DNA from: a virus
Taxonomy: Duplodnaviria > Heunggongvirae > Uroviricota > Caudoviricetes
Direction: 5' to 3' (one strand)
Length of the DNA: 64,000 bases
IMG/VR virus record: IMGVR_UViG_3300008114_001632
The notes below the pieces were generated by a model, which worked only from the letters and a program-made list of their open reading frames with translations, was not told the DNA's origin and ran no database searches. Shown here in pieces: positions 19,649 through 63,324 of the stretch. The position numbers and the translations under genes are program-made. Position 1 is the stretch's first letter, and every line of letters begins with the position of its first letter.

Positions 19649-19799
19649 CGAATTGTCATGTGCATAACATTTCTGCTATTCTGAAACACACTACGACATT
19701 GTTATACAACCAGCTCTAATTGCTGTTTGTGGTAATGTGTTTTAGAATAGTGTTAAGACTGAGATTACATCTTAACCATAAGCACCTCTAGCATTACCG

Positions 19800-20510
19800 T
19801 ACACCTTGCGAGTATACGTTCTCTAGACATCCACTAAGTCCATATCACTATGTAACCTAGTCTGCTTACAGTATCGCCGTTTTAAGTCAGGCAGTAGACT
19901 TGACGCCATATGCTATTCTACACCATCTATTCCGTTAACCTTGCGAGCTATTCGAGTGCGCTAACACCCTACGAAACTTCCAGTATAAACTAATGTTACC
20001 TTGCGAGCTTCATTAGACTTGATTGTGTTACCACTCAAGTATTAGATACTTTTCACATACGACCGAGGCAGTCTTTGCATTTTTGTTTAAATGATCGGAT
20101 TTGAACCGACAGCATTCTTCTTAACAGGAAGATGATCTACCATTGATCTACATTAACCTACCGCGATGAGCTGCCTCAGTTGCTTCATACTCTTTTGGAA
20201 TACAAAATACAACTCACCACATACCTTTTGCCTCGCGAGCTACTCAGTGATGTTTCACGATCGGTGTACTGTATTACTACAGCCCACTAACCATTTACAT
20301 TGTATACGAGCTCTTAGGTGCGACCCCTCGAACAAGTACACTACCCTTTCTCATACCAACTAACTGATTGGTTTTATATGGAAGTCAGCACCACCTGTTA
20401 CTTTTCACTGCCCCGTGTTCCTTGCGGCACGTCGAACAATGTTCTTTCCCATACATCAGCTTTGCTGTTACATCCACCGGTCTTATGAGTGAACGCTACC
20501 TCGCGGTAGT
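19800..20510. repeat. array of >=6 degenerate copies of motif (T)TACCTTGCGAG(C) in an ORF-free region
   Basis: Copies at 19801, 19935, 19995, 20229, 20416 and 20494, with diverged flanks. Confidence 0.55.
20086..20160 (-). pseudogene. degenerate tRNA-Asn(GUU)-like pseudogene
   Basis: D, anticodon (CTGTTAA) and T arms fold; acceptor stem 5/7; no CCA. Confidence 0.4.
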
Positions 20511-37639: not shown

Positions 37640-37861
37640 TTATATACGGAATGAAATACGTCCTTTGGATAGATCGTATGAGCTCATTTCTACTTTTACA
37701 CGATCTCCTGCTACTAATCGGATTTTGTTTTGACGCATACGTCCGCTGGTGTAGCAGACAATCATGCTTTTGTTCACATCTAATAGTACGTTAAATGTTT
37801 GATTTGGTAAAACCTCTACTATTTCGCCCTCAACTTCTAGTAGATCGTCATTCTTTGGCAT
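37640..37861 (-). CDS. infA: translation initiation factor IF-1
   Basis: S1-like fold; [30 protein letters not shown] closely matches bacterial InfA. Confidence 0.85.
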   Translation of the reverse strand: [73 protein letters not shown]

Positions 37862-38627: not shown

Positions 38628-38667
38628 AAGATAACTATAACATTATTTAAACATTAAGTCAAAAAGA

Positions 38668-38695
38668 ACCCCACCGAAGTGGGGCAGCTTTCTAG
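38668..38695 (-). terminator. rho-independent terminator after the pqqA-like gene
   Basis: CCCCAC-CGAA-GTGGGG hairpin followed by a T-run on the minus strand. Confidence 0.55.
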
Positions 38696-38708
38696 AACAT
38701 TTTTACTA

Positions 38709-38780
38709 TTAACGATTCATCACGTACATTGTGATTTCGAAACCAAAACGCATATCAGTTGCTGTTGGTGTTGTCCACAT
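38709..38780 (-). CDS. pqqA: PqqA-like precursor peptide (23 aa)
   Basis: MWTTPTATDMRFGFEITMYVMNR fits the PqqA consensus MW.KP...D.R.G.E.T.Y...R with conserved E and Y. AAGGAG RBS; own terminator. Confidence 0.65.
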   Translation of the reverse strand: MWTTPTATDMRFGFEITMYVMNR

Positions 38781-38894
38781 AATAGTTCTCCTTGTTAATG
38801 AAATAAGTACTGTCTTGCATTAGTACTTATAAACATTATACTGACAAAACTACCTAAAGTACATAGTGAAAATCATTAATTCACTATCGTGAAA

Positions 38895-39401
38895 TTAGCT
38901 ATTCAAAACCTTAGCAACTGAGTTCATCACACTAGCAATACGACCAATGTCACGAAGCTGTTCAACAGTGTATCCTTCTGTCTTCAATGTCTCGTAATGT
39001 GCCTTAACACAGAAGTGACACTTGCCCACAATACTAGCAGCCAAACTAAATGCTTCAAAGTTTGCTTTAGTTGTTCCGCCGTGACTTGCAATAGCGTTCA
39101 TACGTAACTGAGCAGGCAATCCTTTGAGTGCAGGATCATCAGCCATCTCAACGAATGGGTACCACACGTTGTTCTGTGCCATAATGCTTGCGGCTGTCAT
39201 TGCTGACTCTGCATGTACAGGAGCATCTGCTAACAGGATGCTTAGTACCTTGCCGTTACCTGTTGCGGCTAGTGCAGCCACAGCACAACCCAAGGCTACA
39301 TCTGCGTCTAGTGTACTGCGTACTAAAACAGCATCAAGATTTAACTTGGTATCCTTTGCATAGTCTGGTAGTGCGCCTTTTATTGTTTCAATAAAACTCA
39401 T
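38895..39401 (-). CDS. ahpD: alkylhydroperoxidase AhpD-like (carboxymuconolactone decarboxylase family)
   Basis: CHFCVKAH CxxHxxxH motif. Confidence 0.7.
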   Translation of the reverse strand: MSFIETIKGALPDYAKDTKLNLDAVLVRSTLDADVALGCAVAALAATGNGKVLSILLADAPVHAESAMTAASIMAQNNVWYPFVEMADDPALKGLPAQLRMNAIASHGGTTKANFEAFSLAASIVGKCHFCVKAHYETLKTEGYTVEQLRDIGRIASVMNSVAKVLNS

Positions 39402-39811
39402 CGTGTTTGATCTCCTAAGATTTTATATCCACGTCCAGTAGGATGGATTCCGTCTGCACTCATATGGCTTTTTGGTCTAGGCAATATCACATCACCGTAT
39501 TCTTTGGCAATGCGTACAATAGCATCGTGCGGAATAGGTTTACGATCTTGTCCAGGGTCAATCCAAAATACTCGATCGCCCTTAACAGCTTCTCGCATTT
39601 TACGAAGTTCTGCTTCTGTCTTGACGCCTTTGTGATCATTGGCTCCTAGACTAATAATAATAGTTTTAGCAGGTTGTGAGGAGGCTTTAGACAAATAATC
39701 TTTGTTCCATTGCCAACTGTTCCATCCACCTTTTGAATAACTTACGCACTCTGGTCTAGCCATTGCTGTACCAACTGCAATGCTATCACCTACTATTAGG
39801 CAGTCTAACAT
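39398..39811 (-). CDS. SGNH/GDSL hydrolase
   Basis: IVGDSIA, GANDH, DGIHPT blocks. Confidence 0.6.
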   Translation of the reverse strand: MLDCLIVGDSIAVGTAMARPECVSYSKGGWNSWQWNKDYLSKASSQPAKTIIISLGANDHKGVKTEAELRKMREAVKGDRVFWIDPGQDRKPIPHDAIVRIAKEYGDVILPRPKSHMSADGIHPTGRGYKILGDQTR

Positions 39812-40350
39812 TATAGAGTCTCTCCCCCGACTGTGCGATTACAAGCGCAAAGTTCGCCAGTTTGTAGCGCATCCAATACACGAAGTGTTTCTTCTGGGCT
39901 ACGACCAACGTTTAAGTTGTTAACAGTAACGTGTTGGATTTCATTGTTTGGATCAACGATGAATGTTGCACGAAGTGCGGCACCTGCTGGTGCGTAGAAC
40001 ACGCCCAACTGTTCAATCAAGCTCAACTCGCCACGCTGTGTATCAGCAAATTGTGTATGAGTAATTTTCTTTAGATCTGCGTGAGCATTTTGCCAGCTAA
40101 CTTTGCAGAACTCATTGTCTGTGCTACCTGTGAGCAATACTGCATCGCGATCAGCAAAGTCTTGTGCCAATTTGTCGTAGGCTACAATTTCTGTAGGGCA
40201 AACAAATGTAAAATCTTTTGGATAGTAAACGATTACTTTCCATTTTCCTGCAAAACTCTCGTCTGTAATTTCAAAGAACGCATCTTCTGGTTGTCCTGGC
40301 TTAACACCTGTGACTGCAAATTTTTCTAGTTTATCACCAACTGTTTTCAT
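39811..40350 (-). CDS. ahpC: peroxiredoxin (AhpC/Tsa family)
   Basis: FTFVCPTEI peroxidatic Cys motif. Start set at MKTV (40348-40350, AAGGAG RBS). The Cys near the C-terminus is resolving-like. Confidence 0.85.
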   Translation of the reverse strand: MKTVGDKLEKFAVTGVKPGQPEDAFFEITDESFAGKWKVIVYYPKDFTFVCPTEIVAYDKLAQDFADRDAVLLTGSTDNEFCKVSWQNAHADLKKITHTQFADTQRGELSLIEQLGVFYAPAGAALRATFIVDPNNEIQHVTVNNLNVGRSPEETLRVLDALQTGELCACNRTVGGETL

Positions 40351-40544
40351 ATACTTCTCCTTAGTGTGTGTCATGAAATAATAATTATCAGTTTAAAATT
40401 ACCTCAGTGTAAATACTGAGTTTTCTACCTGAACAAGTTTATTATACATGTATTTACAATAGAAATCAACTACTATCCAGCAGTTTTTCATTGTATTTTT
40501 TAATAACGATCATTGAAGGAATCAATAAAGAAAAATAGCAGTCA

Positions 40545-42140: not shown

Positions 42141-44186
42141 TTATTTACTTGTCGCTATAAAAACGCCGTTCCAATCTTTAGGTAGAGTTTGAGTCTGCTG
42201 GAACTCACAACGCTCTATCCACATGTCGTAATACTTGTCCATTTTGCCGTCAAACTGACCTTTTAGTTGTTTACACATGCTAATAGCCGTACTAAACTTT
42301 TGTCCTCTGTATGCACCGTGCATTGATTCGTGTATTTTTTTAGCAACATGATACGTATCAGTGATATCATCTAATACTGTATAGATAGCAATTCCTACAC
42401 TCTTACCTTTTACAGCAAGATCATCAATCTTAAGGAAGAAGAAGTCATCTCCACAGCGATCAACTGTTGCGCCGCCAACTAGCAACAAGCATCCATACTC
42501 TTTACATTTACTTTCAATACGGGCAGCAGTACTAACAGCATCACCTAGTACATCGTAGCTGTGTCTTGCAGTTGATCCCATCTCTCCAATATATCCCAAC
42601 CCTGTATTAATACCAGCACCCATGCCAACGGCAGGTCTTCCTTGAGGTATAATGATTTCTTCATTAAATTTCTCCACTGCTTTAAGCATCTTCAATCCTG
42701 TGCGTACTGCTGTAGCAGGATGGTTCAAATCTTCAATAGGTGCATTATGTATATGCATACTAGCATCACCAATGTACTTAATAATCATACCGTCTGCATC
42801 TAGTACAGGTTGTGTAATGGCATCCATGTAGCCGTTCATTATTTTTGTAAGACCTGCAACGTCATCTCCAAAACTTTCACCTAAGGGTGTAAAGCCGCGT
42901 AAGTCTGAGAACAGTATACTGACTTCTTTCTTAACACCCTTCTTAATTAAGTCTGGATTTTCTTGTAACAGTCTAACTACTGTAGGGCTAGCATAGCCTG
43001 CAAATTGTTTCTTGATTGCTTGTTTCTGTAAGAACTCGCTTATAAACTTAATGCCATAAGCATGAAGCATAACCAGAACAAGCCCGACCACAATACCAGT
43101 TGAATCGAAGAGCCAACTAAACTGTGCATAAGCATAGGAGCCAGCGAATACACTAGTCCCAATAATAACAACACCTGAAATAATACCAACATAAGTCCAC
43201 CTTGTTAAGAATAATAATAGTATACCTGCTAATACTAGTGTTAAGATTTCTACACCGTTGGCATAATCTGGTCTCTGTATAACTATACCGTTAATCATTG
43301 TAGCAATAACACTAGCCTGCACAGCATGTGGGAATACAGCACCCATACTGGTTGGTACAGGATTACTGATACCAGCTGCGGTTGGACCAACAATAACAAT
43401 AGCACCATCTAGGTTTTTAGGCAACTCAAGTAAACTAACATTTTTACTTTGTTGACTCCAATCAATCCATACCCGACCTAAGTTATCTGTAGTAACAGGA
43501 CCAAACTTAGGTATACGCATTTTTTCAACACCGCCTTCAAAAAGTTTGATTTGAAAGGTTGAATCGCCAGCTGCTACTCGCAGTGTTTCCATAGCTATGC
43601 TAGGATAAAGTTTATCGCCAACTGCAACGATAAGAGGTAATCGACGATTCACTCCGTCAACTTCAGGCATAGTTGATACAATACCAATTCCTGCTGCTGA
43701 ATTTTCTAACTGCGGTACGTTAGCAATAAGGCCCGGGTATTGTACAATTTGATCTAACCACTCTGGCCCTAGTACAGCACTGCCTGGGTTGCGTGGTATA
43801 TTTTTAGTTTTATCAGCAGGCACTGATCCTAGTACTACAGGATATTGTTTAAGAGCTGAGGCAAGAGTTGAGTCGCCACCAGTGCGATCAGGCTCAGCCA
43901 TAAGCACATTGAGAACGACAAGGCCAGCACCACGATCATACAAATCTTTAATAATTTTAGCATATTCTGCCCTGGGTAATGGCCATTGGCCGTATTTGTC
44001 TAAAGCAGCTTCGTCTATGTTAACTGTATAGATGTTATTTTCTGTAGGTGCTTTAGAAGTAATTAATGTATCAAAGTAGCGTAGTCTTACACTTTCAACG
44101 AATGTAGGATCTGCTATTCGTATGCCTACTACTAACGCTAGAGTTAATAGAGCAGTCCATGGACTTAAAAGTATTTTTTTAATCAT
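42141..44186 (-). CDS. CHASE2 sensor-domain adenylate/guanylate cyclase (class III)
   Basis: N-terminal periplasmic domain plus TM helices. C-terminal cyclase block (FSDLRGFT...GDA, YDV.GD.V..A.R.E). Confidence 0.7.
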   Translation of the reverse strand: MIKKILLSPWTALLTLALVVGIRIADPTFVESVRLRYFDTLITSKAPTENNIYTVNIDEAALDKYGQWPLPRAEYAKIIKDLYDRGAGLVVLNVLMAEPDRTGGDSTLASALKQYPVVLGSVPADKTKNIPRNPGSAVLGPEWLDQIVQYPGLIANVPQLENSAAGIGIVSTMPEVDGVNRRLPLIVAVGDKLYPSIAMETLRVAAGDSTFQIKLFEGGVEKMRIPKFGPVTTDNLGRVWIDWSQQSKNVSLLELPKNLDGAIVIVGPTAAGISNPVPTSMGAVFPHAVQASVIATMINGIVIQRPDYANGVEILTLVLAGILLLFLTRWTYVGIISGVVIIGTSVFAGSYAYAQFSWLFDSTGIVVGLVLVMLHAYGIKFISEFLQKQAIKKQFAGYASPTVVRLLQENPDLIKKGVKKEVSILFSDLRGFTPLGESFGDDVAGLTKIMNGYMDAITQPVLDADGMIIKYIGDASMHIHNAPIEDLNHPATAVRTGLKMLKAVEKFNEEIIIPQGRPAVGMGAGINTGLGYIGEMGSTARHSYDVLGDAVSTAARIESKCKEYGCLLLVGGATVDRCGDDFFFLKIDDLAVKGKSVGIAIYTVLDDITDTYHVAKKIHESMHGAYRGQKFSTAISMCKQLKGQFDGKMDKYYDMWIERCEFQQTQTLPKDWNGVFIATSK

Positions 44187-44479
44187 TATATTGACGTACC
44201 TAGTTTAATTTTAGATTCTGTGCCTACTCCTAGTATGCAACTAGTTTCAGGAGTCATTTTAAGTAATGTCCAAGATCCTTCTTTTTCATTGATCCATAAA
44301 CTGTAGGCACTATTATCACTAGAATGCTTTCCGCCCCAGGTTAATATTTCTTTATAATTTTCCCCAAGGCTTTTTATGATCTTTTCAGTACTGTCACACA
44401 ACAAGGGATAATCATATCTAAATTGTGCATTGACTGTGCTAGACAAACAAACTAATAAAATTAATAATATTTTTCTCAT
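44186..44479 (-). CDS. small secreted protein
   Basis: Start moved to MRKILLILLV (GGAGGT RBS); signal peptide. Confidence 0.4.
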   Translation of the reverse strand: MRKILLILLVCLSSTVNAQFRYDYPLLCDSTEKIIKSLGENYKEILTWGGKHSSDNSAYSLWINEKEGSWTLLKMTPETSCILGVGTESKIKLGTSI

Positions 44480-44940
44480 GGTCTTTTTACCTCCACATCG
44501 TGTAGTGAGCCATCTTCTTGTGTCCAATTTGGCAACAGCTTATTAAAAATACGACCATATACTCCTGCCCTACCGCTAGACCCTTGTACATCATATTCTA
44601 TCACTTGAATCTTATCGTCGTATGTTATTAAGAAATCTTTTATTATAGCAGTGATAGCTGATATAACTTGTGCGGAGTTACCAGTTCCGGTCATGCTAGT
44701 TTTGCCGTCACCGTTAAAACTAATTTCCCAGTAACCACGGTAGTCAACTTCTTCATTTTCTTCTTCATCATCGTAGCCTACTACATCACGGTCTGCATCT
44801 ACATGATCGTATTCTGAATTCTTTGCTTTGAATTCATACAGCACATTGCCCACAGTAAATTCAGCAGTGGCCTGACGCTCACTGCGATAAGTCCATTTCC
44901 ACGGCACTGAAGTTGCCGCCATTAGTTCATTTATTTTCAT
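44476..44940 (-). CDS. hypothetical acidic protein
   Basis: ORF. Confidence 0.4.
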   Translation of the reverse strand: MKINELMAATSVPWKWTYRSERQATAEFTVGNVLYEFKAKNSEYDHVDADRDVVGYDDEEENEEVDYRGYWEISFNGDGKTSMTGTGNSAQVISAITAIIKDFLITYDDKIQVIEYDVQGSSGRAGVYGRIFNKLLPNWTQEDGSLHDVEVKRP

Positions 44941-45491
44941 TTTCTTTTGTCCGATGTTGGACCTTTAGGCATGTAATCCTTACCATAACTAATACGACTG
45001 CCTGTGATAGTTTCTAGTGCAACGTGTAATGCTGTGCCGCTTAGATGTTTACGTAACCACTTCTCTGCTAGATTATTAATAATCTTTTCATTAGCATAAA
45101 CACGCCCGCTACCTTTTGTACGATCGTGTACATAAGCATGACATGCTTCGTGAGCTGCAATCGCAACATCACGAGCAGCCTTGCTTTCTAAATTTGGAAT
45201 ATTAATACTGCCGCCAGGGCCAGATTCTTCGGTATCTTTAAACATTGGTGTTTCGTTACTGGGGTAGACATAATACATGCCGGGCTCTAAGTCATCATCG
45301 TCGTCTGTTACTCGACTTCTACCTAATATATCTTGAATAGCTTCGTATGCAGTCCATAGCGTCGGTGCCGGCGCTCCACCAACTTTAGTAGTAGGCAACA
45401 TTGGCTTATCTTCTGGATCAAAGTCACCGTACCGCTGACGCAATTCATCGTCGCTAGCTTCTGCTTCTTGGATTATTTCAAGTATTTTCAT
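44937..45491 (-). CDS. putative metallopeptidase (HEACH HExxH motif)
   Basis: IAAHEACHAYVHD. Confidence 0.35.
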   Translation of the reverse strand: MKILEIIQEAEASDDELRQRYGDFDPEDKPMLPTTKVGGAPAPTLWTAYEAIQDILGRSRVTDDDDDLEPGMYYVYPSNETPMFKDTEESGPGGSINIPNLESKAARDVAIAAHEACHAYVHDRTKGSGRVYANEKIINNLAEKWLRKHLSGTALHVALETITGSRISYGKDYMPKGPTSDKRK

Positions 45492-45504
45492 ATGAAGTAT
45501 TTAC

Positions 45505-45534
45505 CATAAAAAACCCGCCTGGCGGGTTTTTTAT
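45505..45534. terminator. bidirectional terminator CCCGCCTGGCGGG
   Basis: Hairpin between A6 and T6. Confidence 0.7.
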
Positions 45535-45549
45535 TTCTAAACCTACTAG

Positions 45550-46671
45550 TTAATTTTGTGTTACAATAAGAGTGCTGGTACTACCTTTATTCACGTTTTG
45601 AATAATAGTCTGCCCATCTTGAATTAAGGTAAATGTAATGTTCTTTGTTGTATCAAATGTTGCTGTGGTATTGTGTGTACCTGCCTTGTATAATGTAACC
45701 TTAGTTTGATCATCATTAAAATAATACAACAAGCCTAATGGTTTGTTTGCTGAGTATCCTGGTAATATTGGATTGTCTAATTCATTGCTCAACAAACTAG
45801 CATTTTGTCTATCAAGTTCATTTAATTCATTAAATGCTAATAGGTCTGCATTTAAATCATTTCTATCTAACTCATTTTTTTTATCTAAAGAATTTTCATC
45901 TAATGCACTAAACTTTAACAAATCGATATCTAGTTCGTTAAAATCTAAAATAGATTTTTCTTTCTTAGCTAGGCCAGCCTGTTCTGTATCTGCAACTTCT
46001 TTAGGTTTGCTAATGATCAACATGTTGTTAATGTTTGCTTGGTCTAATTTTACAATTGTAGGTTCTGTAGGTACTGTGTAAGCACTGTTAACTAATGTAG
46101 CTTGATATGGTACATCTAATATCACAACACCTGCTAGATTTCTAACTTCGATAGCACCAGTAACACAGCCTCCGTTTGGAGAACAACTAGGAAGTAGTAC
46201 TACAAGACTGCGTCCTAATTCATCTACTGTCATAGAAAAATCAGTGCCTCGCACAGCAATAGTAGCGGTAGGTGTTTTGATAGCAACCTGTTGCGGATTA
46301 TTTTTTGCTATTTGTCCGCTTGCATAACGAGCTGTGCCTAAGGCCATATTGATGGCTAATTTACCAGAACCTTTTTTTGGATCATAGACAAAATCATCTA
46401 TGATCATTTTACTGTGTTCTGTAAGTTTAACTGTAGTTTTATCTTCAAAGGTTAATTCAGCTTTGGCTTTAGCTGTGGAGATGGTGTCATTCATCTCCAC
46501 ACCCGTGTTTAGACTAGAAGGAATACTTTTCTTATTCCTTACAATTTCTGTAGGCCCAGTCTGTTCAGTAACTTTACCAACACCGGCAAAGCTATTAATC
46601 GGACTGAGTAACAATAACGTTATTATTAGAACCGTTGCTGGTAATAACTGCATTTTTAGCGAATACTCCAC
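45550..46671 (-). CDS. secreted FecR-domain-like protein
   Basis: Signal peptide; IAVRGTDFSM FecR-like motif. Confidence 0.4.
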   Translation of the reverse strand: MEYSLKMQLLPATVLIITLLLLSPINSFAGVGKVTEQTGPTEIVRNKKSIPSSLNTGVEMNDTISTAKAKAELTFEDKTTVKLTEHSKMIIDDFVYDPKKGSGKLAINMALGTARYASGQIAKNNPQQVAIKTPTATIAVRGTDFSMTVDELGRSLVVLLPSCSPNGGCVTGAIEVRNLAGVVILDVPYQATLVNSAYTVPTEPTIVKLDQANINNMLIISKPKEVADTEQAGLAKKEKSILDFNELDIDLLKFSALDENSLDKKNELDRNDLNADLLAFNELNELDRQNASLLSNELDNPILPGYSANKPLGLLYYFNDDQTKVTLYKAGTHNTTATFDTTKNITFTLIQDGQTIIQNVNKGSTSTLIVTQN

Positions 46672-47284
46672 TCTGTGTTAGTGTCACTGCATTGGCAAGT
46701 TGATTAGTGCCACTGCCTGAAACTGTTATTTCTCCATTATGTAAACCTACACCTGATGCTGTATGTGTTACATTGTTGTAATCGCCATTAATATTAATTT
46801 TACTCTGCACAACGCCACCACTTAACGTCTGTATAGTATTGTTGCTATTACCTGTAATTTCAGATCTAATAATACTAGCATTACAACTTGAACTTAATGC
46901 AGTACCACAACCGATAGTTTGATTGTTGTTGCTACCATCTGCTGAAACTACTATGGTAGATCCTGTTCCATTAGATTCATTGTTAACAATCATACTAAGT
47001 GTATTGCTAGCACCAATTTGACTTATAGTTACATTATTGAGATCGCCACGAATTATAGCAGCATCATCAACGTTGCCGTTGCCACCAACATTACCGTTTA
47101 CTGTGTTGCCTGCTCCTGTTTGTGTAATAGATACAGATGTATTATCACCGATCTGATCAACATAAACATCGTTGGCCCACGCCCCCGATGACAGCATTCC
47201 AGCCATCATTAGAATTGTAAGTACTTTTCTCGACAACTTACCACCGCCTGTGATTCTTTTTTTCATTTTTCGCTCCAGATGCAA
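46595..47284 (-). CDS. curlin-repeat (CsgA/CsgB-like) secreted protein
   Basis: Signal peptide; repeated S-x5-Q-x-G-x-x-N blocks such as SVSITQTGAGNTVNGNV, NVTISQIGASNT, AVTLTQSGVFAKNAV. Confidence 0.55.
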   Translation of the reverse strand: MHLERKMKKRITGGGKLSRKVLTILMMAGMLSSGAWANDVYVDQIGDNTSVSITQTGAGNTVNGNVGGNGNVDDAAIIRGDLNNVTISQIGASNTLSMIVNNESNGTGSTIVVSADGSNNNQTIGCGTALSSSCNASIIRSEITGNSNNTIQTLSGGVVQSKININGDYNNVTHTASGVGLHNGEITVSGSGTNQLANAVTLTQSGVFAKNAVITSNGSNNNVIVTQSD

Positions 47285-47345
47285 GTTATGTTTGTTAATG
47301 CATCTAATTTTAAGTTTAATAAAGACTTTCTCCTATGCTTAACTC

Positions 47346-48593
47346 TCATTTTGGTCTGTGTTCTGAAAGCACGTCAGCTCGCACATACCCCTTACGCTTC
47401 TCTGCGTCTACTACATAATGCCACCCCTCCGGACCTGGAGAAATGATATTAAATTCTGTTCCCTTTTTCAATTGCCATGTTCGTTGACTTTTTTCATTTG
47501 GTTCTTTGTATACAAACGAATCTTCTTTAAGATATCTAGAACTCCACAATTGAGCGGGTGGCTTAACTACTGGAGCAGTATTTGTATTTGTTTCTACTTT
47601 TTCTACAACTACTAAATGTTCTGGTTGTATAGGAACTATCCTTGTTATTTTTTCTGCTTTGGGCTCGACTGTTTGGCTTGCTCCATTGCTTTCTTGCTTG
47701 ACGGGCTCGATCGGTGCGGGTGGTAAGGGCTCTGGGGCTCCTTGGGGTGCTTGTGAGGTTTGTGGTTGAACCAGCTCATCTTTCTTTTCCTCCTTTACTA
47801 CAGGCACTTCTTGTGTTACAGATTTTTTAAATCTCCACATTCCTTTCTTTTCGCCTTCAATGATCATGTCATATACTGCTTGTTCTATAGCAACACGAAC
47901 AGCATATGTTGTAGGTTCATTTAGAGCCTGCCCGTTTTCTAATTCTAGTGCTTTGGTTCCAGCATCAACAAATCTTAATACGCCAACGTTATGTTGTGTG
48001 CTATAGATAGTTTTGCTCACAGCATTAGAAATTAATACTTCCCCACTGTTTACACTTACTAGTCTAAGACTAATTACAATTTCATCTACACGATATTGTT
48101 GACTTCCGCCAATACCTAAGAATCGTGCGCCGTTGCCGCCACTGCGTATGTTGCTGTCGTAGCCAATGATACCACCTTCGATCATAATTCCTGCCACAGT
48201 CATTGGCTTTAATGGTCTAGCATCTTTACCTTCATAAACCTCGCGTTGATTACGTATCAACTGTCGCTCTTTAATAAGGTTATCTAATCCCACACGCTCT
48301 ACAACTTTAAACCAATTTTTTGAGTCTTGAAGTGCTTTGATTAAAAATACTTCAGATCCTTGTGTCACTGCCTTTGAAAACACAGCTAACCTATCATTAG
48401 GTTTCATTTGTCCTGTCTTGTCTGTGAATCCGTAAACTGCAATGGTCATTGGAGGACCGTCTAACTGTGGTATTTTATTAGTAAGACTCTCTCTTGGTGT
48501 TAGAGCCACAGCATCTTCCCTAGCCGCATCCATGTGTATGGTGGCGCATCCTGAAAGAACAGTGACAAGTAACAATGATAATATTAATTTCAT
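47346..48593 (-). CDS. csgG: curli production assembly/transport lipoprotein CsgG
   Basis: LSGC lipobox; CsgG-family core. Confidence 0.75.
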   Translation of the reverse strand: MKLILSLLLVTVLSGCATIHMDAAREDAVALTPRESLTNKIPQLDGPPMTIAVYGFTDKTGQMKPNDRLAVFSKAVTQGSEVFLIKALQDSKNWFKVVERVGLDNLIKERQLIRNQREVYEGKDARPLKPMTVAGIMIEGGIIGYDSNIRSGGNGARFLGIGGSQQYRVDEIVISLRLVSVNSGEVLISNAVSKTIYSTQHNVGVLRFVDAGTKALELENGQALNEPTTYAVRVAIEQAVYDMIIEGEKKGMWRFKKSVTQEVPVVKEEKKDELVQPQTSQAPQGAPEPLPPAPIEPVKQESNGASQTVEPKAEKITRIVPIQPEHLVVVEKVETNTNTAPVVKPPAQLWSSRYLKEDSFVYKEPNEKSQRTWQLKKGTEFNIISPGPEGWHYVVDAEKRKGYVRADVLSEHRPK

Positions 48594-49039
48594 TAAAATG
48601 CAAAGCTCGCTATAGGTACAGTAATTTCTGTTCGGCTACCGTTGGCCTCAATAATAGTTAGAGTTACTTCTGTGGCCGATTTAACCCAACTGATATTAGT
48701 TCCTTGAAAGTCCATAGTTCCGCTTGTTCCTGTACCTTCAGCAAACATTTGATCTGCTAATTGTTTAGACAATTGTGCGTAGATACGTGCTTCTACGTTA
48801 ACAAGGAATTTACTTAGATTTGTTTGTTTTGCAGCAGCTTCTGCCTTAGCTATAGCAGCCAGTTCTTCGCTCTTAATTTCTTTCTTTTTAGATTCTTCTA
48901 ATTGATGGATTGACAAGACGTGCTGACTGAATCCATTGCCTGGTATAAAGGCTGGACTTTGAAAATTATGTATTAGCTCTGTAGCGAATGCACTACCTGC
49001 AAACACTAGCATTGCCCCCAATGCTGTGATGTATTTCAT
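48593..49039 (-). CDS. csgF: curli assembly protein CsgF-like
   Basis: Signal peptide with FQSPAFIPGNG N-terminal CsgF-like motif; immediately upstream of csgG. Confidence 0.55.
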   Translation of the reverse strand: MKYITALGAMLVFAGSAFATELIHNFQSPAFIPGNGFSQHVLSIHQLEESKKKEIKSEELAAIAKAEAAAKQTNLSKFLVNVEARIYAQLSKQLADQMFAEGTGTSGTMDFQGTNISWVKSATEVTLTIIEANGSRTEITVPIASFAF

Positions 49040-52944: not shown

Positions 52945-54111
52945 TTATTTACCATTGCTTGCATAAACAGCATTAAATTGCTGAGTTACACGAACAAAGG
53001 TTGTGCATTTGCTAAGTTGCTTTAGCGTCTTAGCGCCTGCATACGTACAGGTACTACGCAAACCGCCTAGTATGTCCTGTACAGTATTTAGTACCTTACC
53101 TTTATAAGGTACTAAAACTTCTCGCCCTTCGGCGCTACGGTATTCTTTTAAACCACCAAAATGTTTTAGGTTGGCTGCTTCAGAACTCATACCATAAAAT
53201 TCTACAAATTTCTTTTCTTCTATTTTGCAGCCAGTCCATGTCCACTCTGACTGCCCGTCTTCTAGGATACGCTGTCGGGCCTGTAACTCGTTAGTTTCGT
53301 AGAGTCTTGTAATGACTTCTCCGCCGCCTTCATCGTGTCCAGCCAGCATCCCTCCGAGCATAACAAAATCCGCTCCTGCGGCAAATGCCTTGGCGACATC
53401 TCCTGGACAGGTACAACCCCCGTCTGCAATAATATGTCCCCCCAAACCATGAGCAGCATCAGCACACTCCATAACAGCACTAAGCTGAGGATAGCCAACG
53501 CCAGTTTGAATACGAGTTGTGCAAACGCTCCCAGGACCAATGCCCACTTTAATAATATCTGCTCCACTTAAAATTAACTCCTCAGTCATTTCGCCTGTCA
53601 CTACATTGCCAGCAATGATTACGATTTCTGGATATGCTTCACGAAGCTTTCTAATAAAAGTTGCAAACCGCTCGGAATAGCCGTTAGCAACATCCACACA
53701 AACGTATTTAATGTTTGTTAGTGTTTCGCTGTACACATTAGCAAACTTATCGTAGTCAGCTTGTGTAATTCCCATTGAGTATGCTACTCGATGAGTTCTA
53801 TAATATTCATCTGCATTAAAGAAGTCAATTAATTCTTCTGCACTATATGTCTTAACTAGACATGTAAACATGCCTTCATGTGCAAGAATGTCTGCCATAG
53901 CAAACGTACCAACTCCGTCCATATTAGCAGCCATGATTGGAACACCAGTGTATTGATATTCTTCCCAATTTTCGTGCTCAAAAGCAGGACTGTAATTTCT
54001 AAATTTAAACTTACGGAATAAGTCTACTTCCTGCCGAGAGCCTAATGTACTACGCTTAGGACGAATTAACACATCTTTGTAGTCTAACTTTATATCTTGT
54101 TCAATTCTCAT
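52945..54111 (-). CDS. guaC: GMP reductase (GuaC; IMPDH/GMPR family)
   Basis: Matches E. coli GuaC end to end ([40 protein letters not shown]). Confidence 0.9.
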
Positions 54112-62735: not shown

Positions 62736-62737
62736 AG

Positions 62738-62764
62738 AAAAGCACCCGAGGGTGCTTTCTGGTA
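62738..62764. terminator. bidirectional terminator AAAGCACCCGAGGGTGCTTTCT
   Basis: Hairpin plus T-runs on both strands. Confidence 0.65.
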
Positions 62765-63120
62765 ATTTCTGTTACGAGGTATTTCCTACCCTAAGCAGTG
62801 TTTAGGCTGCTAATGCGTATTCGCTTGAATTTGCGTTTACTTGATTTGCTTGATTTACGGTCATCGCCTACCGTGTTGCCGTCTCCATTATCTCACCCTG
62901 TCGAAACCATGTCAGGCCCATCATAAGAATACTATTTTTCAATTTTGTGATAAACACGAACATTATTATTGTACATATAAACAACCCAGCATACGCTTAC
63001 AATTATCGTTATAGTAGCAAAAATTAATCCTTTAATCATTTTAATTTCCTTATGGTGGACCTGGCGGGAGTCGAACCCGCGTCCAGAATGCCTTCACTTT
63101 GAAGGGATTACAACAATTCC
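62763..63120 (-). ncRNA. ssrA: circularly permuted (two-piece) tmRNA (ssrA)
   Basis: Acceptor piece ends GCGGG-TTCGACT-CCCGC-CAGGTCC-A-CCA at 63053-63085. Coding piece begins GGGCCTGACATGGTTTCGACAGGG at 62902, pairing with G3:U70. Tag ORF GCAAACGCAAATTCAAGCGAATACGCATTAGCAGCCTAA = ANANSSEYALAA* at 62802-62840. Terminator at 62738. Confidence 0.6.
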
Positions 63121-63324
63121 TTAAGCAGGCTGAATATTGCTAGCCTGTTGTCCTTTCATACCCATTGTGACTTCAAATCTTACGCTCTGACCTTCTTGTA
63201 GACTTTTGAAGCCACCTGAATTAATCTGAGAGAAATGAGCAAAAAGGTCTGCTCCGCCGCTATCCGGTGTAATGAATCCAAAACCTTTGGCGTCGTTAAA
63301 CCATTTTACTTTTCCTGTTACCAT
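63121..63324 (-). CDS. cspA: cold-shock protein CspA family
   Basis: [15 protein letters not shown]1 and VFAHFS RNP2 motifs; long 5' UTR. Confidence 0.85.

Follow-up and report, generated by a model that had tools for sequence, protein, structure and literature searches.

Identification of a stand-alone pqqA gene and its expression cassette

Analysis of a 64,000-nucleotide stretch of DNA from a virus of the class Caudoviricetes (IMG/VR record IMGVR_UViG_3300008114_001632; this whole stretch is hereinafter called the window) revealed a 72-bp open reading frame (ORF) that encodes a 23-residue peptide of the PqqA family. PqqA is the ribosomally made peptide from which pyrroloquinoline quinone (PQQ), a redox cofactor, is produced, with one peptide being consumed per molecule of PQQ. 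The enzyme PqqE, together with the chaperone PqqD, cross-links a glutamate and a tyrosine of PqqA, after which the protease PqqF and the proteins PqqB and PqqC trim and oxidise the product. An initial annotation made from the sequence alone had singled out this ORF as a stand-alone PqqA-like gene that retains the two cross-linked residues, and had proposed that the phage either supplies PQQ precursor to its host or has repurposed the peptide as the precursor of another ribosomally synthesised and post-translationally modified peptide (RiPP). The ORF is indeed present, and lies on the minus strand, which had not been stated earlier (Table 1). A 6-kb region of the window recurs at 99.98-100% identity on metagenome contigs of up to 316,657 bp (ENA ERZ27247957 k141_990718), and the window therefore belongs to an uncultured jumbo phage.

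A search with profile hidden Markov models (HMMs), which the initial annotation had called for, recovered the peptide with both curated models of the family. Pfam PqqA (PF08042) matched MWTTPTATDMRFGFEITMYVMNR with 38.7 bits (E 9e-10; gathering cutoff 21.1) over all 19 model positions, and the NCBIfam equivalog TIGR02107 matched it with 37.7 bits (E 1.3e-9; cutoff 20) over positions 1-21 of 21. The peptide possesses the conserved residues W2, P5, R11, G13, E15, T17 and Y19, among which Glu15 and Tyr19 form the E-x-x-x-Y arrangement of the cross-link motif. No second PqqA-like ORF occurs in the window, and the sequence identifies this one as a genuine pqqA gene. The possibility of a chance ORF was ruled out by the HMM scores together with the finding that all 119 re-found pattern matches from IMG/VR (see below) are likewise clean short ORFs.

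The gene is typified by a compact set of putative expression signals, in the order dyad element, -10 box, 5' hairpin, strong Shine-Dalgarno (SD) sequence, 23-codon ORF and terminator (Table 1). Both the ribosome-binding site and the hairpin terminator of the initial annotation were recovered, the former as an AAGGAG element and the latter as a stem-loop with a T-run. The TATAAT hexamer is likely to be part of the cassette's own promoter, judging from the box itself and from comparison with other cassettes. A scan with a strict sigma-70 consensus reported no promoter directly upstream of pqqA, because the -35 element matches the consensus at only 3 of 6 positions. The stem-loop in the 5' untranslated region (UTR) would, according to prediction, form the 5' end of the transcript or be close to it, and might function there as an mRNA stabiliser.

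Table 1. Positions of the pqqA cassette, its neighbours and further elements in the window
Feature	Position	Strand	Remarks
pqqA ORF	38709..38780	minus	ATG at 38780, end (stop included) at 38709; 23 codons and TAA, then in-frame TAG and TAA; encodes MWTTPTATDMRFGFEITMYVMNR
Shine-Dalgarno AAGGAG	38788..38793	minus	7 nt upstream of ATG
5'-UTR 9-bp stem-loop AUAAGUACU-(10 nt)-AGUACUUAU	38803..38830	minus	in both minimum free energy and centroid structures
-10 box TATAAT	38835..38840	minus	60 nt upstream of ATG; weak -35 (TGTACT, 17-nt spacer)
Upstream dyad TTAATGATTTTCACTATGT	38861..38879	minus	core TAATGA-N3-TCAYTA; ends 20 nt before -10 box
Intrinsic terminator GCCCCAC-TTCG-GTGGGGT then TCTTTTT	38660..38685	minus	from scan for terminator-like hairpins
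AhpD-like	38895..39401	minus	upstream, co-directional with pqqA
GDSL/SGNH hydrolase	39398..39811	minus	upstream, co-directional with pqqA
ahpC-like peroxiredoxin	39811..40374	minus	upstream, co-directional with pqqA
Promoter-like sites upstream of the ahpC block	40469..40441 and 40413..40384
B12-binding radical SAM protein, 645 aa	59156..61093	minus	Pfam B12-binding and Radical_SAM domains only
tmRNA, two-piece (permuted)	62736-63172	minus	Rfam beta_tmRNA RF01850, 167 bits; ARAGORN tag ANSSEYALAA
IF-1 homologue	37640-37861	minus	eIF-1a domain, 71.6 bits
GOLLD RNA, full-length	19756-20220	minus	Rfam RF02032, 201 bits (gathering 150), E 3e-55
tRNA-Asn	20086-20157		nested in GOLLD RNA
Envelope/signalling block	42141-49039	minus	host-like
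CHASE2-adenylate/guanylate cyclase	42141-44186	minus	member of the block
FecR-like	45550-46671	minus	member of the block
CsgG	47346-48593	minus	C-terminal SH3 domain
CsgF	48593-49039	minus
IMPDH/GMP-reductase family protein	52945-54111	minus	238 bits

Orphan pqqA genes in viral metagenomes and cultured phages

Two scans of IMG/VR with degenerate DNA patterns were used to collect further viral copies. A pattern for W..P...[ED].R.G.E[VI]T.Y recovered at least 120 contigs, and a pattern fixing residues 1-14 only recovered at least 120 matches. On re-scanning of 120 loci from the first collection 119 matches were found again, all of them clean ORFs of 23-25 codons that start 1-3 codons before the Trp and stop 22-23 codons after it (22 in all but one). 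In the second collection E15, T17, Y19 and N22 were present in all 120 matches listed, each of which also terminates after residue 23, and the positions W2, P5, R11, G13, E15, T17 and Y19 were invariant in the same number. Taken together the scans cover at least 161 loci, among which 147 nucleotide versions and 67 peptides can be distinguished. Changes relative to the window copy are concentrated at the third codon position (581, 325 and 1571 at positions 1, 2 and 3, respectively) and the median dN/dS is 0.13, a value biased towards the low side, given that several residues were held constant by the search pattern. This pattern of variation indicates that the phage copies are under purifying selection for the peptide that they encode.

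None of pqqB-E was detected in the first 120 of these loci (991 kb), and when IMG/VR was scanned with a PqqC profile, no more than two contigs were recovered. One of these (L295, IMGVR GVMAG-S-1026894-104) is a fragment of a giant-virus metagenome-assembled genome with pqqC, D and E; the other (L296, IMGVR 3300019280_001311) is a 3.4-kb contig with a pqqA-pqqB-pqqC arrangement that looks like a cellular operon. Either might represent cellular contamination. Thus, as far as this collection reveals, pqqA in orphan form, i.e. unaccompanied by the genes for the PQQ enzymes, is frequent in phages.

A tblastn search of 50,697 phage records with the peptide recovered matches in 12 records, 9 of which are isolates infecting Methylophilales, at 65-83% identity. 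These comprise P19250A, which infects the freshwater LD28 lineage, and Venkman, MEP301, MEP401, MEP402 and four Melnitz strains, which infect marine OM43 bacteria; they represent five phage types from several unrelated lineages. Another record is a spring-water podovirus, and the remaining two are labelled 'Acinetobacter phage'. The one of these that was inspected, 'Acinetobacter phage MD-2021a' (L007, CAKLQF020000010.1), was rejected as a case of phage pqqA, as it contains a bacterial pqqABCDE operon in a phage-labelled record. This 144-kb record includes a chromosomal-looking stretch with entB, fur, ppk, pqqABCDE and an M19 dipeptidase and is probably bacterial sequence, or else a prophage with a large host flank; its operon was used only as the source of the PqqB-E queries. 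The ORF is thus retained in both related and unrelated phages, and neither of the two outcomes that the initial annotation had named as counting against it, namely failure in the PqqA models and want of conservation in related phages, was observed.

In the five isolate records inspected (KX815270.1 [L002], MT375522.1 [L003], MW452941.1 [L004], OP830907.1 [L006] and MZ577097.1 [L001]; MEP401 is not among them) pqqA is unannotated. It occupies an intergenic gap or, in Melnitz, lies beneath the opposite-strand 'hypothetical protein' gene gp152, and the papers on Melnitz and on MEP401/402 do not mention it. Likewise, the gene caller skipped pqqA on every examined metagenome contig of the phage to which the window belongs. 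Gene callers miss the gene because it is only 72 bp long, and surveys of viral auxiliary metabolic genes (AMGs) therefore systematically undercount it.

Conservation of the expression signals and the upstream dyad

Comparison of the viral loci showed that the signals around the window copy are widespread. Of 160 loci, 154 contain an SD-like core (6% of random positions), and 76 (47.5%, against 3.3% of random positions) are followed by a terminator-like hairpin no more than 90 nt downstream. An exact TATAAT occurs between -90 and -26 in 50 of 147 cassettes (34%, against 4.6% of controls), at a median distance of 53 nt upstream of the ATG. The 5' UTRs of 147 cassettes fold more stably relative to shuffled sequences than control segments do (mean z -1.45 vs -0.30; Mann-Whitney p 2e-12), and in two of the loci (L043 and L017) ACATACT/AGTATGT takes the position of the stem-loop, which amounts to compensatory changes relative to the window. 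Both flanking ORFs are antisense to pqqA in 55 of 139 loci, where transcription of the cassette must therefore be autonomous. In most of these viral contigs, similarity to the window at the nucleotide level is restricted to ~78 nt of SD region and ORF (38716..38793); in unrelated contigs it typically begins at the SD site (38793) and stops with the ORF. A few contigs (L033, L043 on the 356-kb IMG/VR contig 3300023174_000036, L017, L074, L094 and L111) also share the upstream 100 nt. The confinement of similarity to SD and ORF, the enrichment of signals and the antisense neighbours thus point to a unit with transcription of its own that has been transferred between unrelated phages.

The upstream dyad is unique within the window. 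With up to 4 substitutions allowed, 35 of 156 viral pqqA loci (including L110, L048, L058, L041, L033 and L043), as opposed to 1 of the 116 bacterial loci sampled, have it ~80-185 nt upstream (mostly 80-110). The dyad is similar to GATAATGATAATCATTATC, the consensus of the Fur box, with 16 of 19 positions matching in L110 and 13 of 19 in the window, the latter being unremarkable by itself; matches of at least 14/19 occur in 8.2% of viral pqqA loci and in 0.6% of controls. On these grounds the dyad might, speculatively, be considered a candidate operator. A still broader proposal would see in the orphan pqqA cassette a hallmark gene, mobile by horizontal transfer, of phages of PQQ-dependent Betaproteobacteria, overlooked in the inspected records of cultured Methylophilales phages and placed under the control of a host transcription factor by this operator, which is positioned about where a -35 element would lie. 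We regard this proposal as rather unlikely. Were the dyad to act as such an operator, precursor supply would follow the metal or iron status of the host, making pqqA a condition-sensing AMG that acts at the level of substrate, comparable to the Pho-box control of cyanophage pstS.

The PQQ enzymes and the B12-binding radical SAM protein

The absence of pqqBCDE from the vicinity of the gene, noted in the initial annotation, was found to extend to the whole 64 kb. A tblastn search of the window with Acinetobacter PqqB-E gave a best E-value of 0.015 over 37 residues, and a set of profile HMMs, one for each of these four proteins and each derived from 47-67 bacterial sequences, gave a best E-value of 0.06 on all 753 six-frame segments. 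Hence pqqA has none of pqqB/C/D/E as an operon neighbour in the window. This lack of an operon does not disqualify the gene as pqqA, because orphan copies are normal in Methylophilaceae and frequent in Caballeronia and Paraburkholderia (see below).

The B12-binding radical S-adenosylmethionine (SAM) enzyme to which the initial annotation had drawn attention is real and is encoded 20.4 kb from pqqA. Whether it has a SPASM domain or a RiPP recognition element (RRE) had been posed there as a question; neither of these, nor a PqqD domain, was found in it with Pfam and NCBIfam, and a profile scan recovered no RRE or PqqD-like segment anywhere in the window. Its best NCBIfam match is the KedN5-type B12-dependent class-B C-methyltransferase (243 bits vs a cutoff of 700), and its weak matches, far under the cutoffs, include the RiPP C-methyltransferases ApyD (77.8 bits) and TIGR03975 (65.6 bits). 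There is no match to a local PqqE profile up to E 10, no PqqE model appears in the best 25/30 matching families, and no PHROG family matches the protein. The candidacy of this protein as a PqqE was therefore rejected, and processing of the PqqA peptide by it is not supported.

Probable host and bacterial pqqA copies

The tmRNA of the window is of the two-piece, betaproteobacterial type. The PqqA core D-M-R-F-G-F-E-I-T-M-Y is found in many Burkholderiales, including Comamonadaceae, Burkholderiaceae (among them Limnobacter) and Rhodocyclaceae, where the gene usually lies beside pqqBCDE and the identity to the window peptide reaches 19/23, the value for the Thauera type. The copy of the Methylophilaceae phage P19250A is equally close (19/23). 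The peptide ends differ between the phage-typical form 'MW...YVMN[KR]', as in Methylophilaceae phages, and the form 'M[KQ]W...YIA[NT]R' of the bacterial copies in the Burkholderiales genomes that were sampled. These features suggest that the host is a betaproteobacterium, possibly a low-GC freshwater methylotroph.

Genomes of Methylophilaceae carry 3-12 pqqA copies per single pqqBCDEFG set (PMC4109929), and in a methylotrophic PQQ-producing strain with five copies three are orphans, one of which is among the two most highly expressed (PMC9851590). Orphan copies are also seen in non-methylotrophic Burkholderiaceae: in many Caballeronia and Paraburkholderia loci (L133-L252, e.g. L136, L145, L150 and L152), each fetched as 8 kb, pqqA (…DMRFGFEITMYIATR) is unaccompanied by pqqB-E.

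Functional implications and alternative explanations

The above observations provide considerable clues regarding the likely function of the gene. Given that the window encodes no PQQ enzymes, pqqA most likely feeds the pathway of the host itself, and we consider it probable that it constitutes a self-contained precursor cassette supplying substrate to host PqqBCDE. Under this proposal the phage would keep making the consumable PqqA precursor during infection, and pre-existing PqqBCDE proteins of the host would convert it to PQQ. Periplasmic PQQ-dependent dehydrogenases, such as the methanol and alcohol dehydrogenases of a betaproteobacterial host, would thus stay loaded while host transcription fails, and would in turn provide the phage with energy for its replication. 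Several steps of this proposal are inferred, namely that infected cells express the gene, that the host enzymes process the peptide and that the phage benefits. Of the two ideas offered in the initial annotation it is precursor supply that the comparative evidence favors best, on the basis of the consistently orphan phage copies, the retention of Glu and Tyr, the purifying selection, the occurrence in phages of PQQ-dependent methylotrophs and the 3-12 copies in host genomes. The gene also has the attributes of a phage AMG or moron, being located in a phage genome, having a host-derived metabolic function, carrying its own signals and being conserved.

Several considerations weigh against this proposal. 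The low dN/dS is partly a product of the search, for which the pattern of residues 1-14 corrects only in part. The 64 kb analysed belong to a genome of at least 316 kb, and PQQ enzymes or a PQQ-dependent dehydrogenase could be encoded elsewhere in it. The presence of pqqBCDE in the host is deduced only from the betaproteobacterial type of the tmRNA and the type of the PqqA sequence, the role assigned to phage pqqA rests on comparative evidence, and it is not established that PQQ supply becomes limiting within the short span of an infection.

Among the alternatives, the phage peptide could be a decoy or inhibitor that binds host PqqD or PqqE unproductively and stops the host from making PQQ, for instance in order to divert SAM or reducing power or as one element of host takeover. 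The N-terminal half of bacterial PqqA is the part recognised by PqqD, and this half is conserved in the phage copies, for which formation of the product is itself a deduction. Yet a decoy would need the recognition region only, whereas E15, T17 and Y19 persist in all 120 listed copies found with the pattern of residues 1-14. Moreover, the similarity of the phage peptides to functional bacterial PqqAs (19/23 for the Thauera type) is as high as that among the latter, many orphan copies serve as natural substrates in the hosts, and stopping the main energy enzyme of the host would hurt the phage; a decoy is accordingly very unlikely. Less likely still is a role independent of PQQ, be it as a small regulatory or signalling peptide or as a locus acting mainly as RNA. 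While the conservation of the 5' UTR and upstream dyad in a subset of cassettes would be compatible with such a role, the distribution of changes over codon positions reflects selection on the protein sequence, which is that of a canonical PqqA. An RNA-family explanation was rejected after Rfam recovered no family at the locus, the best hit being isrB with 17 bits (E 0.88).

The other idea of the initial annotation, a repurposed RiPP precursor from which phage enzymes such as the B12-binding radical SAM protein make a product other than PQQ, found no support and is yet more improbable. The presence of that enzyme in the same window, its weak similarity to ApyD and TIGR03975, and the radical SAM genes noted in a pqqA-associated phage population (Coutinho et al. 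2020, PMC7678222) would speak for it. But the enzyme is encoded at a distance, in a different gene block, and lacks the domains and the PqqE similarity described above. The neighbours of pqqA (AhpC, GDSL hydrolase, AhpD, a 2-oxoglutarate [2OG]-Fe(II) oxygenase-like protein and IF-1) include no RRE or PqqD and do not make up a RiPP cluster. The peptide has retained the canonical PqqA sequence rather than diverging, and the same cassette occurs in phages of 35-45 kb, the size of most pqqA phages, with no radical SAM gene seen in the fetched pqqA flanks of the inspected cultured ones. The least probable explanation is that the gene is passenger DNA, i.e. a recent host fragment or an orphan copy of host type with no selected role in the phage. 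Scattered orphan copies in Methylophilaceae, Caballeronia and Paraburkholderia would be available for pick-up, but the 147 nucleotide versions on at least 161 viral contigs, with their third-position changes and invariant length and key residues, largely refute this possibility. The cassette is further present in several unrelated lineages of cultured phages, and its expression signals are kept, where neutral passengers would decay.

Comparison with known systems

The proposed supply of PQQ precursor by a phage has a precedent in the Lake Baikal viral population VP_266, whose PqqA was proposed as an AMG that raises PQQ for methanol oxidation (Coutinho et al. 2020, Microbiome 8:163, PMC7678222). 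Viral PqqA having thus been published with the same reading, the gene described here is a further instance and not the first. VP_266 was described as a T4-like freshwater phage of 35% GC that carries a methanol dehydrogenase gene and has betaproteobacterial Methylophilaceae as its predicted host (PMC7678222). It has in common with the present phage a PqqA precursor gene on an uncultured phage genome; it differs from it in that the 64-kb window lacks a methanol dehydrogenase gene and in that the contigs of the present phage reach 316 kb. The anatomy of the cassette, the orphan status across phages and the presence in cultured phages are not part of that report (PMC7678222), and in the literature searched we found no description of the extent and strict orphan status of phage pqqA, of the unannotated copies in cultured methylophages, of the cassette anatomy or of the upstream dyad.

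The orphan pqqA genes of Methylophilaceae (PMC4109929) are similar stand-alone units of 23-24 codons with their own signals that provide extra substrate for one set of enzymes. Unlike these bacterial orphans, the window copy resides on a phage genome, has the phage-type peptide ends and is preceded by the dyad that is largely confined to viral loci (35/156 viral vs 1/116 bacterial). It shares the peptide family and the E-x-x-x-Y motif with the canonical pqqABCDE(F) operon, as in the Acinetobacter record; however, it is followed directly by a terminator instead of pqqB, and pqqB-E are absent from the window. A functional parallel is provided by cyanophage psbA, which encodes the high-turnover D1 protein, allowing the phage to replace a quickly consumed host component. 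In both cases the phage would provide a consumable part and lean on long-lived host machinery, although the product of pqqA is the single-use substrate of a cofactor rather than a structural subunit.

Accordingly, pqqA would represent a rare type of phage metabolic gene, which provides not an enzyme but the single-use peptide substrate of a redox cofactor. It points to precursor supply, as opposed to enzyme capacity, as the lever on PQQ in infected methylotrophs, in keeping with the 3-12 pqqA copies of their genomes. The hypothesis is relevant to the turnover of methanol in lake and coastal marine waters and is directly testable, as several of the cultured phages have culturable hosts: OM43 strains H5P1 (Venkman and Melnitz), FZCC2181 (MEP301) and FZCC0133, and LD28 strain IMCC19250 (P19250A).

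Gene neighborhood and other features of the window

The cassette is located at the 3' end of a co-directional block of ahpC-like, GDSL and AhpD-like genes. Past its terminator there are a new promoter-like site, the 2OG-Fe(II) oxygenase-like gene (38627) and the IF-1 (initiation factor 1) homologue. Two promoter-like sites precede the ahpC block. Between ahpC (40374) and the 2OG gene (38627) the scan placed terminator-like hairpins on the minus strand at one site only, as two overlapping ones just after pqqA. As no terminator was found between the block and pqqA, the latter may also receive read-through from the promoter(s) near 40.4 kb. In viral contigs that are otherwise unrelated, homologues of GDSL, AhpC and the CHASE2 cyclase, with 31-53% identity, are again encoded no more than a few kb from pqqA: GDSL in L113, L129, L063 and L278, AhpC in L041 and L273, and the CHASE2 cyclase in L062 and L258. 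In L113 and L129 the GDSL gene is directly upstream of pqqA. For the AhpD-like neighbor protein, the index of the contig collection lists 47 blocks.

Several features mark the window as phage DNA. Nearly all of its genes are on one strand, and its GC content is ~0.39. It carries 28 tRNAs in addition to the tmRNA, and a full-length GOLLD RNA lies inside the tRNA array with a tRNA-Asn nested in it. PHROG matches include structural, glycosyltransferase and phosphoesterase families; several large ORFs have no PHROG match. A megablast search of the 36-42 kb region against the 50,697 phage records gave no match, and the DNA ligase is at most 36% identical to that of any cultured phage. Together with the 54% identity of CsgG these values indicate a phage without close cultured relatives. 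The CsgG and CsgF genes belong, along with the CHASE2 cyclase and a FecR-like gene, to the host-like envelope/signalling block; the closest CsgG homologues noted are those of OM43 phage Melnitz (54%) and Pelagibacter phage HTVC008M (51%). The window additionally encodes a member of the IMPDH/GMP-reductase family (Table 1).

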